64,000 bases of DNA from an uncultured Actinomycetota bacterium (lineage in GTDB: Bacteria; Actinomycetota; Actinomycetes; JACCUZ01): NCBI GenBank assembly GCA_963746175.1, contig CAVVAH010000008.1, positions 800,377-864,376 of the forward strand, read 5' to 3'. Both the position numbers and the translations under genes were made by a program. This document shows positions 1,992-23,305 of the stretch, in pieces. The first letter of the stretch is position 1, and each line of letters begins with the position of its first letter. Under the pieces are notes generated by a model that saw only the letters and a program-made list of their open reading frames with translations, did not search any database and had not been told where the DNA came from.

Positions 1992-2200
1992 GATCGCTCG
2001 TGTGCGACATGAGTCCCCGACAGCCGAGGGGGCGTGTCGGGGAGCGAGGTCGCAAACGATCTTCCTGGCCACCCCGCGGCTGCGAGGTGTTCACCGAGCC
2101 GTCCACAGGGGGCCTCAAGTGCTCAGGGCGGATGTCCGATAGACTCATCGGCAGCAGCCCACCCAGAGGTTGCCCGGAGCGCTCGCAGTCGAGCGCCCGG
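1992..2200 (+). repeat. intergenic palindromic repeat element, copy 1 of the gatcg..tgcgac / gtcgcaaacgatc subfamily
   Basis: gatcgctcgtgtgcgac ... tccccgacagcc/ggcgtgtcgggga ... gtcgcaaacgatc. The string ggcgtgtcgggga(g/c)cga(g/c)gtcgcaaacgatc recurs at 22117-22147. It is followed by a tail resembling gctcag..gcggatg..cggcagcagcccaccc. Confidence 0.5.
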
Positions 2201-2353
2201 TCCCCCGCCCCGGAGGGGCGAGCGACTCCAGATCCGCGTGTTTTCTCGCGTGCACGGGTCGCCGTACCTCAGGGCAGGACACGCACCAGCCGCCGACGCG
2301 GACCCCGTAGAGAGATGCGGGTCGCCGGTGGCGCACCACGGAAGGAGACCATC

Positions 2354-2389
2354 ATGGTCGAGGACGACTTCGGTCCCTGGGACGACTGA
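2354..2389 (+). CDS. tiny ORF MVEDDFGPWDD (11 codons), candidate leader peptide or small protein
   Basis: Strong SD (GGAAGGAGA) 6 nt upstream of the ATG. The stop is followed 50 nt later by a 15-bp perfect hairpin. The gene downstream is an MFS transporter. Confidence 0.3.
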   Translation: MVEDDFGPWDD

Positions 2390-2439
2390 CCCAGGACCAC
2401 CCGAGCAGGGAGCCCCACGAGGGATCCCTCTGGTCAACC

Positions 2440-2483
2440 CGACGCCCCGACCGGCCCCGTGCCGGTCGGGGCGTCGTCGTTGC
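2440..2483 (+). terminator. stem-loop cgacgccccgaccgg-ccccgtg-ccggtcggggcgtcg followed by tcgttg
   Basis: 15-bp perfect inverted repeat visible directly. The U-tract is weak, which is typical of high-GC terminators, or it could be an attenuator. Confidence 0.45.
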
Positions 2484-2725
2484 CGAGGTCGTGGCTGATG
2501 GCGGGCCATCAGACGGGGCCCAGGGCAGGCTGACGGTCGGGAGCGGTCCGGGGATCGTCGGCAGGCCGGTGGCCGACAAGGTCGGCAACGGCACCGGCAG
2601 CCCCGAGGCGAGGTGACATGGTGTCCGTAGCCCGGAATCGGATCAAACCGGGGTGATCTAGACCACACAGTCTCCGCCAGTGACCGCCCGGGACGGGACC
2701 TGACCGCCCCGGCTACCGTCGCCGG

Positions 2726-3982
2726 GTGACGACTCGCGCCGACGGATCCCGCCGGTCGCGCAACCCGATGGCCGGCCTGCCACGCGAGGTGGCCGTCCTC
2801 ACCGCAGTCGCCTTCGCCGTCGCCGTCGGCTTCGGCGTCGTCGCCCCCGCGATCCCCGAGTACGCCCGCGACTTCGGCGTCGGGCGCACGGCCGCCGGCG
2901 CGGTGATCTCGGCGTTCGCGTTCATGCGGCTGGTGTCCGCCCTCGGCAGCGGCCGCCTGGTCAACCGGTTCGGCGAGCGACTGGTGCTCGCCACCGGCAT
3001 CGGGATCGTGGCGGTGAGCAGCGCCCTGGCCGGTCTGGCCCAGACGTACACCCAGCTCCTTCTGCTGCGCGGTGTCGGCGGCGTCGGGTCCGCGATGTTC
3101 ACCGTCTCGGCCATCTCGCTGCTGCTGCGCGTCGTCGACGCCGACCAGCGCGGCAAGGCCACCGGCATGTGGCAGTCCGGCTTCCTCGTCGGCGCGATCG
3201 CCGGCCCCGCGATCGGGGGGCCGCTCACGGCCATCTCGTTGCGCGCGCCGTTCTTCGTCTACGCCGGGACGCTCGCAGTCGCCGGCGGAATCGGGCTGCT
3301 CTTCCTCACCCGCGCAGCGCTGCACGAGGCCGAGACGTCGACCACCGACGCCCGGGCCGTGACTCTGCCGCAGGCCTTACGGGTGTCGGGCTACCGGGCG
3401 GCGCTGGTGTCCAACCTCGGCAACGGGTGGGCCCTGTTCGGCGTACGCAGCTCGCTGATCCCGCTGTTCGTCACCGAAGGCATCGGCGCATCGGCCACCT
3501 GGACCGGCATCGGGTTCTTCGTGTCCGCGGCGGCGCAGGGCGGACTGCTGCTCGTCGCCGGCTCGTTCACCGACCGCGTCGGCCGGCGACCGGCGCTGCT
3601 CATCGGCGGTGCGGCCGCCACCGCCGCCATGCTGCTCGTCGCTGTGAGCGACTCACTCGCCGTCTACACCGTGGCGATGGCGCTGTTCGGCGCCGGTTCG
3701 GCCTTCCTGTCCGTGGCGCCGAGCGCGATCGTCGGCGACGTCGTGCACGGCAAGGGCGGCACCGTCGTGGCGGCGTTCCAGATGTCGGCCGACCTGGGAG
3801 CCGTCGTGGGGCCGCTGGCGGCGGGCTGGCTGGCCGACGACTACTCCTTCGGAGCGGCCTTCGGGGTCACCGCGGCCGTCCTCGCCGCCGGTCTGGTCAC
3901 GGCGTTCTTCTCCGCCGAGACCCGGCACCGCACCGACCCCGCAGACCGCAACCCGGACCCGTCGCCCGGCACATCCGGCTGA
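2726..3982 (+). CDS. MFS transporter (12-TMS type)
   Basis: Hydrophobic helices throughout, and the MFS motif region GRLVNRFGERLVL. Alternative start at 2768 (MAGLP). Confidence 0.75.
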   Translation: MTTRADGSRRSRNPMAGLPREVAVLTAVAFAVAVGFGVVAPAIPEYARDFGVGRTAAGAVISAFAFMRLVSALGSGRLVNRFGERLVLATGIGIVAVSSALAGLAQTYTQLLLLRGVGGVGSAMFTVSAISLLLRVVDADQRGKATGMWQSGFLVGAIAGPAIGGPLTAISLRAPFFVYAGTLAVAGGIGLLFLTRAALHEAETSTTDARAVTLPQALRVSGYRAALVSNLGNGWALFGVRSSLIPLFVTEGIGASATWTGIGFFVSAAAQGGLLLVAGSFTDRVGRRPALLIGGAAATAAMLLVAVSDSLAVYTVAMALFGAGSAFLSVAPSAIVGDVVHGKGGTVVAAFQMSADLGAVVGPLAAGWLADDYSFGAAFGVTAAVLAAGLVTAFFSAETRHRTDPADRNPDPSPGTSG

Positions 3983-4078: not shown

Positions 4079-4636
4079 TCAGCCGGCGGGGCGGAGCAGG
4101 CCGTCGGCGACGACCTCGAGCAGCGGGCGTACGGCGTCGTCGCCGAGACCGCCCTGGTCGGCGACGGTCGCGATACCACCCACCAGCCGGCAGACCTGCA
4201 CCGACTGGGTGCCGTCGCGCAGCGCACCGTGCTCCCGGAGCCGGGCCAGCACCTTGCCGTTGGCCGCGGTGAGGGCCTGGCACTTGCGGTGCATCGGCGA
4301 TGCCGAGTCCGCCATGGCCGAGGTGATCTTGGCCGGGCCGCCGCGGTGCGCGCTGATGTGGTGGACGTAGTCCGTGAACCAGCCGAGCAGCATCTCGCGG
4401 GGCGGCAGCTCGCTTGCCACGGCCTTGTCGGCGGAGGCGTGGACCCGGGCGACCCAGTCCTTCATCAGGGCGTCGTAGAGAGTGTCGCGGTTGGGGAAGT
4501 GCCGGTAGAGCGTCCCCGGGCCGACCTCGGCCCGTCGGGCGATCTCGTCCATCGAGGCGTCGGCTCCGCGCTCGGCGAACACCTGGCGCGCGACCTCGAG
4601 GATCCGGTCGTAGTTGCGCTGCGCGTCGGCCCGCAC
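4079..4636 (-). CDS. TetR family transcriptional regulator
   Basis: N-terminal HTH with MDEIARRAEVGPGTLYRHFPNRDTL. It is divergent from an MFS efflux gene. Confidence 0.85.
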   Translation of the reverse strand: MRADAQRNYDRILEVARQVFAERGADASMDEIARRAEVGPGTLYRHFPNRDTLYDALMKDWVARVHASADKAVASELPPREMLLGWFTDYVHHISAHRGGPAKITSAMADSASPMHRKCQALTAANGKVLARLREHGALRDGTQSVQVCRLVGGIATVADQGGLGDDAVRPLLEVVADGLLRPAG

Positions 4637-4746: not shown

Positions 4747-6228
4747 ATGTCATCCACCACCTCGACCTCGCGCGCCTCGCAGCGGACCCGCTCCGCGCTG
4801 CCGCAGGACCTGCCGGCGGACGCCGGCCGCGCAGCGGCGGGCGTCGCGCTCGTCCTCGTCGCCCAGCTCATGCTCATCCTGGACGCCACCGTCGTGAACG
4901 TCGCGCTGCCGCGCATCGACGCCGACCTGGGCTTCGGCCCGGCGGCGCTGTCCTGGGTGCTCAACGCCTACACGCTCGCCTTCGGCGGGCTGCTCCTCCT
5001 CGGCGGCCGCCTCGGCGACGTCTTCGGCCGCCGCCGGGTCTTCGAGATCGGCCTCGCCGTCTTCACCCTCGGCAGCGTCGTCGGCGGCCTCGCGCCGTCC
5101 CCCGCGTGGCTGCTTGCCGGCCGCGCGGCACAGGGCGTCGGCGCCGCGATGGCCGCGCCCGGTGTCCTCGCCCTGCTGACCACCAGCGCCCCGGACGAGG
5201 CGGCTCGCAACCGGGCACTGGCACTCTTCGGCGCGGTCACCTCCGGGGGCATGTCCCTGGGGCTGCTCCTGGGCGGGCTGCTCACGGACCTCGGCTCGTG
5301 GCGCTGGACGCTGTTCATCAACGTCCCGATCGGGATCGCCGTCCTCGCCCTGACCCGTCGCCTGCTCAGCGAGACCCCTCGCCGCCCCGGCCGGTTCGAC
5401 GTCGTCGGGGCCGTCACTGCCACCCTCGGCGCGGTCTCCGTCGTGTGGGCGCTCATCGGCGCCCCCGAGCACGGCTGGACCTCGGCCCGGACCGTCGGCG
5501 GGCTCGCGCTCGGTGTCGTGTCCCTGGTGACCCTGGCGGTCACCGAGCGCCGGGTGTCGCACCCGCTGCTGCGACCGGCCCTGCTCCGGGACCGGACCCG
5601 GGTGGGATCGCTGGCCGTCATGACGCTGATCGTCGGCGCGCAGTTCTCGATGTTCTTCCTGATCGTGCAGTTCCTCCAGCGCGAGCTCGAGCTCGGTCCC
5701 CTGGCCTCCGGGTTCGCCTTCCTCCCTCTGTCGGTCGGCATCTTCGCGATGTCGCGGGTCACCCCGCGGCTGGTCGCGAGGTTCGGCCAGGTGCCCTTGC
5801 TCATGGTCGGCACCGTCGGTATGTCGGCGAGCTTCGCCTGGCTCAGCCTGATGGCACCCGGCCAGGGCTACGCCACCGCGGTCCTCGCGCCGATGCTCCT
5901 CAACGGCATCTCCGCCGGCCTCACGTTCATGCCGGTCACGTCACTCGTCCTGGGCGGCGTGGAGCCAGAGCACGCCGGGTCGGCGTCGGGACTGCTCCAG
6001 ACCGCGCAGCAGCTGGGCGGTGCCGTCGGCCTCGCCGTCATCGTCTCGGTCTACGCCGCGAACGACCGGCCGGGCGAGTTCCTGCCGGGCACCACCGAGG
6101 CGTTCCTCACCTCGGCGTCGTTCGCGCTGGCGGCCTTCCTGATCGCCGTCACCGTCGTGCGCCGCCGGCGTCCGGCCGCCGAGCGGGAGTGCGCGGAGGT
6201 CGTCGAGCGACAGCTCGAGGCGGCATGA
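4747..6228 (+). CDS. MFS transporter, DHA2-like 14-TMS drug:H+ antiporter
   Basis: 493 aa. Motifs LDATVVNVALP and GGRLGDVFGRRRVF. The classic TetR-MFS divergent pair. Confidence 0.8.
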   Translation: MSSTTSTSRASQRTRSALPQDLPADAGRAAAGVALVLVAQLMLILDATVVNVALPRIDADLGFGPAALSWVLNAYTLAFGGLLLLGGRLGDVFGRRRVFEIGLAVFTLGSVVGGLAPSPAWLLAGRAAQGVGAAMAAPGVLALLTTSAPDEAARNRALALFGAVTSGGMSLGLLLGGLLTDLGSWRWTLFINVPIGIAVLALTRRLLSETPRRPGRFDVVGAVTATLGAVSVVWALIGAPEHGWTSARTVGGLALGVVSLVTLAVTERRVSHPLLRPALLRDRTRVGSLAVMTLIVGAQFSMFFLIVQFLQRELELGPLASGFAFLPLSVGIFAMSRVTPRLVARFGQVPLLMVGTVGMSASFAWLSLMAPGQGYATAVLAPMLLNGISAGLTFMPVTSLVLGGVEPEHAGSASGLLQTAQQLGGAVGLAVIVSVYAANDRPGEFLPGTTEAFLTSASFALAAFLIAVTVVRRRRPAAERECAEVVERQLEAA

Positions 6229-23130: not shown

Positions 23131-23230
23131 GACACTCCTCCGTGGGGTGCCCGCGGGAAGTCGCGGGACAGGATCCTGCCCAGAGTAACGACAAGGGCGG
23201 ATCCCGCGTTCCCCGAACGGGTGACGAACG

Positions 23231-23305
23231 TGCCCCCGGTGGGACTCGAACCCACACTGGACCCGCTTTTAAGGCGAGCGCCTCGACCAATTGGGCTACA
23301 GGGGC
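23231..23305 (-). tRNA. tRNA gene, class I (short variable loop), apparent anticodon UAA (would read UUA Leu), discriminator A
   Basis: Minus-strand sequence GCCCCTGTAGCCCAATTGGTCGAGGCGCTCGCCTTAAAAGCGGGTCCAGTGTGGGTTCGAGTCCCACCGGGGGCA. 7-bp acceptor stem, GGTTCGAGTCC T-loop, anticodon stem CTCGC/GCGGG with loop CTTAAAA. No CCA encoded. Confidence 0.8.

Follow-up and report, generated by a model that had tools for sequence, protein, structure and literature searches.

We propose that positions ~2114-2480 of the window, as we call the whole 64,000-nt stretch of DNA analyzed here, constitute an autonomous micro-gene, possibly a dual-function small RNA, whose main product would be a peptide acting in trans. 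Our rough probability for this reading is 0.55. Comparison with related loci shows that the parts of the element are conserved across lineages and that the unit, as judged from its genomic settings, is independent of the MFS transporter gene downstream.

In the proposed mechanism, the promoter (-10 box TAGACT) would start an RNA at ~2151 that begins with three adjoining hairpins, P1-P3, followed by a fourth, P4. A strong, unpaired Shine-Dalgarno (SD) sequence would then be exposed, leading to translation of the acidic undecapeptide MVEDDFGPWDD, and the transcript of roughly 330 bases would end at a very stable GC hairpin. The peptide would act in trans on some cellular partner through the seven invariant residues at its C-terminus, D-[FY]-G-P-W-D-D, and the structured leader would stabilize the short mRNA or regulate its translation. 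The conserved C-rich loop of P1 may add a base-pairing function, which would make the transcript a dual-function small RNA. The features of the element and its context are as follows.

2114-2119, + strand: conserved promoter block CTCAAG, ~20 nt before the -10 box (alignments A1 and A2 and upstream-region table)
2140-2145, + strand: predicted -10 box TAGACT (TANNNT type); predicted transcript start at ~2151-2153
2154-2173, + strand: P1 hairpin, GCAGCC / loop CACCCAGA / GGTTGC (match to model R1 at 2151-2205, 72 bits)
2174-2200, + strand: P2 hairpin, CCGG(A)GCGCUCG-CAGU-CGAGCGCCCGG; 7 pairs, 96% paired, 5 changed on both sides
2201-2280, + strand: P3 hairpin, variable in length (folds of the window and of the related locus L004; alignment A2)
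2289-2332, + strand: P4 hairpin, immediately 5' of the SD (fold; outer stem in 33-40 of 42 distinct sequences)
2340-2348, + strand: SD GGAAGGAGA, 5 nt upstream of the ATG and unpaired in predicted folds
2354-2389, + strand: micro-ORF read from the window sequence, ATG at 2354, 11 codons and TGA (2387-2389), product MVEDDFGPWDD; 10-12 codons in 67 loci
2404-2432, + strand: small, lineage-specific hairpin holding a 12-bp palindrome (fold)
2440-2476, + strand: GC-rich 16-bp hairpin with 5-nt loop and U-poor tail; predicted 3' end/terminator of the small transcript
2523-2620, - strand: what remains of the LP-repeat C-terminal tail of a convergent gene (L035 protein as tblastn query on the window, E = 1e-11); context
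2714-2728, + strand: MFS -10 box TACCGT (2714-2719), 6 nt, and probably leaderless GTG start at 2726; context, outside the element

Conserved parts of the proposed transcription unit

The ORF was carried by 67 related loci, every one a MAG or metagenome sequence; this count overstates the number of independent events since many loci are closely related. A scan of 185,579 species genomes anchored on the ORF, whose pattern imposed most of the peptide but left the stop at codon 12 free, yielded 32 loci. Adding the window and five syntenic loci brought the total to 38, each with an SD and with precisely 11 codons before a stop at codon 12. An RNA-anchored scan of metagenomes, based on the P1/P2 motif only, gave 31 matches, 30 of which had a 10-12-codon ORF 126-201 nt downstream that ended in [FY]GPWDD and a stop; the 31st was a chance match within a coding region. 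There was one copy of the element in the window and one in every related locus. The carriers are uncultured soil actinomycetes, a clade known only from metagenomes.

A TANNNT hexamer ended 5-7 nt before P1 in 53/53 distinct P1-bearing upstream regions, and the actinobacterial -10 motif is (T)ANNNT at -6 to -13 (PMC6448022). The promoter block read CTCAAG, CTAAGG, or TCAAGG in the relatives and may be a -35-like element or a factor site. Scanning with an E. coli-type consensus, which was uninformative for this organism, detected 0 promoters and 0 terminators. The reading made from the sequence alone (hereafter the sequence-only reading) had described 2062-2340 as structured-looking and untranslated. 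The segment 2152-2482 folded at z = -4.6 (the whole unit of L004 at z = -4.1), and a GC3 coding signal was absent throughout 1979-2725. Conservation, however, began only at ~2114 with the promoter block and at 2151 with the RNA, whereas 2062-2113 was not conserved.

P1 and P2 of the 5' RNA domain showed covariation. Six pairs of P1 were 100% paired, with one pair occurring as GC 22, AU 21, or GU 6 times, and its loop followed the C-rich consensus CC[AG]CCNAG. P1 and P2 together were 97.9% paired, with both-side changes in 8/13 pairs; 0/500 shuffles reached the observed values, and slid controls were 25-45% paired. P3 kept its base (GUCC...GGAC) and a 3' GCAGGA, and its apical part was ~50 nt longer in a "long form", which is the form of the window. 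The outer stem of P4 also covaried (GC 15, UA 13, and CG 4 at one pair). The C-rich P1 loop and the covarying stems are indirect hints that the RNA may also regulate targets by base pairing. Pairing of the P1 loop (CCCAG) with the ORF (CUGGG) in a pseudoknot was rejected by inspection, as the loop variant CCAAG was independent of the CCT Pro codon. Rfam scanning of the whole window gave no family at gathering score in this region and nothing relevant in 1900-2850 at E up to 10.

Downstream of the ORF, the hairpin at 2440-2476 was present as the sequence-only reading had claimed, but with a 16-bp rather than a 15-bp stem (arms 2440-2455 and 2461-2476, 5-nt loop); the window copy has a folding energy of about -38 kcal/mol. 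In nearly all loci, a similar hairpin of about -30 to -41 kcal/mol stood 6-90 nt past the stop, with stem sequences that differed among lineages. Its tail contained 2 U in 10 nt in the window, equal to the median over loci; U-poor terminators have been reported in actinobacteria, though their efficiency is debated. We infer that the transcript terminates at this hairpin. The 12-bp palindrome GAGGGATCCCTC (2419-2430), also pointed out earlier, does exist but is common only to the closest relatives, L049 and L063, and lies within the small lineage-specific hairpin.

The -10 box in 53/53 upstream regions, the stable hairpin after the stop in nearly all loci, and the varied genomic contexts thus indicate, at the level of sequence, that the element is transcribed independently, from a promoter of its own to a 3' end of its own. 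In L011, L012, and L034, the SD, ORF, and hairpin were kept whereas P1/P2 were absent, which suggests that the unit has the ORF as its core.

Constraint on the peptide and on the RNA

The 11-codon ORF with a strong SD, which had been noticed in the window, was retained across the 67 loci, with one correction: the spacer between SD and ATG is CCATC, 5 nt instead of the 6 given earlier. An SD-like tetramer was found within 18 nt of the start in 58/58 distinct loci, even where its sequence differed (GGAGA, GAGGU, AGGAC). The ORF was always 10-12 codons long, and all 67 loci shared the C-terminal core D-[FY]-G-P-W-D-D followed directly by a stop, so the peptide passed the conservation check in related loci that had been suggested for it. 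The N-terminus was variable, with V, I, H, Y, N, or D at residue 2 and then E, D, and K. Substitutions within the core were synonymous or F/Y exchanges, with Gly and Pro retained via GGT, GGC, GGA, and GGG and via CCC, CCT, and CCG. The stop stayed at a fixed position while its identity changed (TGA 33, TAG 29, TAA 5). Indels within the ORF were whole codons only, giving 10, 11, or 12 residues, whereas those in the untranslated regions were of any length. The degenerate peptide pattern had 0 expected matches in the shuffled window, which together with the recurrence in 67 loci and the fold z of -4.6 places the observation beyond chance. The pattern of conservation suggests that the small ORF is under peptide-level selection and is translated.

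No longer reading frame was conserved across the loci. A 129-aa in-frame ORF (2000-2389) was rejected, having no GC3 signal and, in relatives, a nearest upstream in-frame stop 6 to 395 codons off. Sequestration of the start codon in GACCAnnAUGGUC was likewise discarded, being lost in lineages with a different second codon. The peptide strings had no match in a literature search, and the core gave 0 matches in viral contigs. A free peptide of 11 residues may be unstable in the cell.

The same conservation might instead reflect a cis-acting sensor, in which the nascent peptide, acting in the exit tunnel in a TnaC-like manner, would let a metabolite stall termination; the stall would govern what becomes of the peptide's own transcript, how stable it is, or whether it is read through. 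We regard this as unlikely. It fits the conserved amino-acid identity, the invariance of the residues adjoining the stop next to a variable N-terminus, and a peptide short enough to lie wholly inside the tunnel; moreover, acidic penultimate and last residues form a poor termination context in E. coli. On the other hand, there was no conserved downstream gene to regulate, the distance from stop to hairpin ranged from 6 to 90 nt, and the peptide resembles no arrest motif known to us. Codons 7-9 of the ORF formed a hairpin with the sequence past the stop in 39/53 loci (74%), but shuffling the downstream part still gave such a hairpin in 64% of folds, and it was rejected. A combined version, in which the growing peptide would detect a metabolite on reaching its stop codon and this event would flip a trans-acting small RNA from a coding to a regulatory state or back, seems to us quite unlikely.

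We also considered a purely non-coding small RNA, whose ORF would be untranslated and conserved as RNA sequence or structure, for instance as a seed or as a protein-binding site like the palindrome GUCCCUGGGAC. The ORF stretch was the best-conserved part of the RNA in the alignments, and codons G7 and P8 were GGT in 88% and CCC in 86% of loci, compared with 11% and 27.5% in the genes of the window. This codon bias implies that part of the ORF conservation acts at the nucleotide level. The structured 5' domain with its C-rich loop, similar to the target-pairing loops of 6C sRNA (PMC6486639), would also suit a non-coding RNA. The interchange of three stop codons at one position, the whole-codon indels, the survival of the SD through sequence change, the use of four Gly and three Pro codons, and the persistence of the ORF in the three loci without the 5' domain all speak for coding, and we hold this alternative to be very unlikely. 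The preferred reading, an autonomous micro-gene with a peptide product, agrees with the stand-alone micro-protein gene already named as a possibility in the sequence-only reading. Conservation of the promoter, the SD, the length of the ORF, the peptide, and the predicted terminator supports it.

The MFS gene and other neighbors

In most main-clade loci, the ORF was upstream of the MFS gene on the same strand, and the MFS start lay about where it had been placed in the window (GTG at 2726, 250 nt past the hairpin). The start must be this GTG, because L002 has no internal ATG. The sequence-only reading had compared this layout to a leader-peptide attenuator. In such a scheme, stalling of a ribosome within the 11-codon ORF, for instance with a drug bound, would remodel the downstream RNA and turn on the MFS gene. 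The arrangement on one strand, the hairpin standing between ORF and MFS gene, and an ORF length similar to that of the erm, cat, and cmlA leader ORFs agree with such a scheme.

Four features of the loci contradict it. First, the ORF-to-MFS spacer was unconserved, ranging from about 110 to 1800 nt, rather than a short conserved linker. Second, a conserved opposite-strand, convergent gene occupied this gap in many relatives; its homologues are intact there, whereas the window has only a remnant, with stop codons further upstream in the tblastn alignment. In relatives, the 3' hairpin also stands at the end of this convergent gene. Third, the MFS gene had no SD and instead carried its own TANNNT box, with a GTG or ATG in frame 5-9 nt further on, in 34/40 distinct MFS-linked loci, which is a leaderless layout. 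Alternative pairing between the ORF and an MFS SD therefore has nothing to sequester, and a single transcript from ORF to MFS gene is disfavored, as the -10 box would place the MFS start downstream of the ORF. Fourth, at least 14 ORF-bearing loci had no MFS or VWA gene nearby, with entirely different neighbors. The variable stop-to-hairpin distance also implies no fixed ribosome-terminator geometry. We consider an attenuator of the MFS gene highly implausible. The MFS gene is probably a separate, leaderless gene, and on the evidence of these gene orders its link to the ORF is one of synteny, not regulation.

Overall, the neighbors of the ORF were either a VWA gene, a hypothetical gene, and an MFS gene, or unrelated genes. 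Neighbors in the divergent loci, which included a GT39 gene, alpha-galactosidase, NuoH, HAD, MMPL, ALDH, ADA, SecDF, Ffh, a GAF-domain kinase, and HrpA, shared no functional theme. An amino-acid operon leader of the trpL type was rejected, with a single Trp codon in the ORF and no biosynthetic operon downstream. That the ORF encodes a precursor for a RiPP (ribosomally synthesized, post-translationally modified peptide) or a cofactor, for instance one with an [FY]6-W9 aromatic cross-link as in biarylitides, is scarcely credible: it is very short with conserved aromatics, and the biarylitide precursor BytA has just 5 aa, but neighbors vary by lineage with no modifying enzyme gene co-located, a predicted terminator hairpin instead of an enzyme gene lies 3' of the ORF, and the F/Y exchange disfavors chemistry that needs the tyrosine hydroxyl.

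Significance and comparison with known systems

A peptide of 10-12 residues with an invariant D-[FY]-G-P-W-D-D end would rank among the shortest conserved stand-alone gene products of bacteria. ORFs this small are ignored by genome annotation, and few conserved bacterial peptides of <15 residues have been described. The comparative evidence is unusually clean, since promoter, covarying 5' RNA domain, SD, heptapeptide, and predicted terminator travel together across the clade. Researchers on small proteins and small RNAs thus have a defined family open to synthesis, with a cheap peptide and an RNA of ~330 nt. The drug-sensing attenuator is removed as a false lead, and the neighboring MFS transporter is highly conserved and separate.

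Short leader ORFs such as those of ermCL, ermBL, cat86, and cmlA have ~5-19 codons and a strong SD and are located upstream of a resistance gene. The micro-ORF shares a short, strong-SD ORF upstream of a resistance-type gene. Those leaders, however, are contiguous with their target and form alternative pairings, whereas here a predicted terminator and variable DNA, often with a convergent gene as well, separate the ORF from the MFS gene, which is probably leaderless. In TnaC-type stalling peptides, the conserved residues adjoin the stop codon and include Trp and Asp. In our peptide, too, the amino acids beside the stop codon are conserved, Trp and Asp among them, but it is much shorter, has no motif similarity, and lacks a conserved downstream target or Rho-site logic.

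Another comparison is with Spot 42/SpfP, SgrS/SgrT, and AzuCR, which, as proposed for the present element, are short, independent, structured transcripts with their own promoter and terminator and a very small ORF. SpfP and peTrpL are precedents for small regulatory RNAs that encode peptides of 14-15 aa, SpfP of Spot 42 having 15 aa (PMC12612679). The element has no sequence or Rfam relationship to Spot 42, SgrS, or AzuCR, its peptide is shorter (10-12 aa), and base pairing is putative. To our knowledge, actinomycetes, the host group here, are generally considered to lack Hfq.

In Sinorhizobium meliloti, rnTrpL encodes the 14-aa, trans-acting peTrpL on a small RNA tied to control of multidrug efflux (PMC12612679; PMC6614838). 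The present element likewise encodes a tiny peptide on what would be a small RNA; rnTrpL is a trp operon attenuator with tandem Trp codons, whereas the present peptide has a single Trp, its gene is not followed by a biosynthetic operon, and the link to efflux is one of synteny only. Finally, the 6C (B11) sRNA of Actinobacteria pairs with its targets through C-rich hairpin loops without a chaperone (PMC6486639). The element resembles it in being actinobacterial and in having a conserved C-rich hairpin loop, but 6C is non-coding and has another fold, and the element gave no RF01066 match even at E up to 10.

The micro-ORF and its surroundings

The window consists of actinobacterial-type DNA (72% GC), in which 750 nt without third-position GC signal separate a 269-aa ORF (end 1978) from an MFS transporter gene. 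The sequence-only reading had described here a tiny ORF with a strong SD, a palindrome, a downstream hairpin and the MFS start; every one of these features was found, and the SD-ATG spacer, given as 6 nt, is 5 nt. A degenerate peptide pattern has a single match in the window; the number expected by chance is zero.

Features of the element and of the MFS start (P1-P4, predicted RNA hairpins)
about 20 nt further upstream of the first -10 box: CTCAAG or CTAAGG block
2140-2145, +: predicted -10 box TAGACT (TACACT in most other loci)
2154-2173: hairpin P1, with conserved, C-rich loop CC[AG]CCNAG
2174-2200: hairpin P2
P3: hairpin with conserved base, differing in length (long and short forms)
2289-2332: hairpin P4, with a G-C to U-A exchange in the outer stem
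2340-2348, +: SD GGAAGGAGA, 5-nt spacer to ATG 2354
2354-2389, +: micro-ORF MVEDDFGPWDD, 11 codons (ATG 2354, TGA 2387-2389)
2419-2430: palindrome GAGGGATCCCTC
2440-2476: 16-bp hairpin
2714-2719, +: predicted -10 box TACCGT of the MFS gene, 6 nt before the GTG
2726, +: GTG start of the MFS ORF

The 269-aa ORF (1169-1978) has a strong coding signal and no Pfam match, and only some syntenic loci have it between the VWA gene and the element (58-90% identity). Further downstream, a divergent TetR-family regulator (4079-4636, -) and a second MFS gene of the 14-TMS type (4747-6228) form a classical regulator and efflux pair with no relation to the element. The sole Rfam or ARAGORN match in the 64-kb window is a tRNA-Leu(TAA) at 23230-23305 (-).

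Relation to the MFS gene

The proposal that the ORF is a leader-peptide attenuator of the MFS gene was rejected on four counts. First, the sequence from the hairpin to the MFS gene is unconserved in alignments, and 110 to 1802 nt separate the ORF stop codon from LPREV, a conserved motif of the MFS N-terminus. Second, many relatives carry a conserved opposite-strand gene inside this spacer. Third, the MFS gene has no SD, and 34 of 40 distinct loci show a TANNNT box with a gap of 5-9 nt to an in-frame GTG or ATG, a layout by which the gene appears to have a promoter of its own and a leaderless mRNA. The upstream GTG was confirmed as the start because the MFS gene of the related locus L002 has no internal ATG; ATG 2768 in the window is not the conserved start. 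Fourth, the ORF unit occurs in unrelated contexts, with no MFS or VWA gene, in at least 14 loci. The neighbourhood of element and MFS gene is thus a matter of synteny in a single clade, whose gene order is MoxR-type ATPase, Rv0959-like VWA protein, optional 269-aa gene, element and MFS.

The spacer gene encodes a protein whose N-terminus is Arg-rich (VSRARRxPRHRRPxRLARTAAP); a transmembrane segment follows, and then a repeat tail that is rich in Pro, Thr and Leu and ends in LP. No Pfam domain was found in the protein. The gene is intact in three related loci (oriented coordinates: L002, 3278-3871; L003, 3220-3789; L035, 5930-6496). Since its stop adjoins the GC hairpin, this hairpin lies between two convergent genes. 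In the window, about 30 codons of the C-terminal tail are left (2523-2620, -), interrupted by stop codons. In L063, the closest relative, the loss of the gene is complete.

Conservation of peptide and RNA

Metagenomes frequently contain homologues of the MFS protein (76-93% identity), and the ORF was present in all five syntenic contigs examined. A scan of 185,579 species, each represented by one genome, with the degenerate pattern gave 32 loci. They come from MAGs whose labels are Actinomycetes, Sporichthyaceae, Frankiaceae, Frankiales or Jiangellales, and from one contig that is evidently mis-binned. L015 (JAJAYQ010000087.1) is labelled a Spirochaetaceae MAG yet carries actinobacterial VWA and MFS genes (85-86% identity) beside the element, and is probably mis-binned. 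Every locus had the 11-codon frame, an upstream SD and an immediate stop, which the pattern did not demand. As the pattern had fixed much of the peptide beforehand, metagenome contigs were scanned independently, with the 5' RNA hairpins about 130-200 nt upstream of the ORF as the only anchor. The ORF was found in 30 of 31 matches, the remaining one being a chance match within a gene. This set added the variants MNEKDYGPWDD, MYEKDYGPWDD, MNEKDYYGPWDD (12 aa), and MDDDFGPWDD and MNDDFGPWDD (10 aa).

The invariant core in 67 loci, many of them closely related to one another, is D-[FY]-G-P-W-D-D plus stop. Stop codons interchange (TGA 33, TAG 29, TAA 5), length varies by whole codons only, Gly and Pro are retained through several synonymous codons, and no longer conserved reading frame surrounds the ORF. 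Judged from sequence comparison, these features are the marks of a translated ORF whose peptide is under selection. The loci recovered included no cultured carrier; the phylogenetic range is probably broader than they show, because the genome-wide scan demanded a near-exact peptide.

Gly7 is GGT in 51 of 58 and Pro8 is CCC in 50 of 58 distinct loci (about 87%); in the genes of the window, GGT makes up 11% of Gly codons and CCC 27.5% of Pro codons. GGUCCC is therefore constrained at the nucleotide level as well. It belongs to the palindrome GUCCCUGGGAC; the sequence GTCCCTGGGAC (window 2372-2383) forms an 11-nt palindrome. Pairing of GGUCCC with post-stop sequence is unsupported, because shuffled controls showed it too (64%, against 74% of loci). 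Repeats occur after the ORF in a few loci: in L065, a unit of about 26 nt that begins with the ORF end (GACGACTAG...) stands three times in tandem just after the stop, L015 has the ORF end duplicated after the stop, and L026 has direct repeats AAGGACCGCGGACCCAGTCC downstream.

The conserved block spans about 2114-2480, with no conservation past either edge in the alignments. All 53 distinct sequences have a TANNNT hexamer whose end lies 5-7 nt upstream of the first hairpin, the spacing of actinobacterial -10 boxes to transcript starts (PMC6448022). The SD is unpaired in predicted folds. A very stable GC hairpin follows the ORF, and some lineages have an extra small hairpin in between. No Rfam family matches the region.

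A covariance model built on P1 and P2 gave exactly one match per ORF locus, three loci excepted, and one in the window (2151-2205, 72 bits). In its alignment, 97.9% of cells are paired and both sides change at 8 of 13 pairs, values somewhat favoured by the fitting of the alignment to the model. None of 500 shuffles matched them, slid partners pair at 25-45%, and an independent MAFFT/RNAalifold alignment returned identical pairs. Three divergent loci (ORF ATG in oriented coordinates: L011, 3516; L012, 2209; L034, 1643) lack P1 and P2 and keep the SD, ORF and hairpin, which suggests that the ORF is what the unit cannot do without. The L012 ORF has a divergent HAD gene only about 54 nt away, and a gene for an MMPL transporter lies about 150 nt downstream.

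Nature of the unit

The conserved promoter, SD, peptide and 3' hairpin, found in varied contexts, support the other possibility raised at the outset, a stand-alone micro-protein gene, and the unit is most likely an autonomous micro-gene. A live alternative is a cis-acting sensor working through the nascent peptide; it is opposed by the lack of a conserved downstream target and of a fixed geometry, the stop-to-hairpin distance ranging from 6 to 90 nt. A function of the RNA only is unlikely because of the coding signatures of the ORF.

In the favoured reading, the unit would produce a peptide acting in trans, with the invariant acidic-aromatic C-terminus as its business end, and the structured leader may serve stability or translational control. 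Its interest lies in the extreme shortness, the invariant peptide and the clean architecture. On comparative grounds, the unit represents a new family among small RNAs that code for a small protein or have a dual function. The C-rich P1 loop may have a second role in base pairing, for which the 6C sRNA (PMC6486639) is a precedent, and Spot 42/SpfP (15 aa) and rnTrpL/peTrpL (14 aa) are precedents for a dual-function RNA (PMC12612679).
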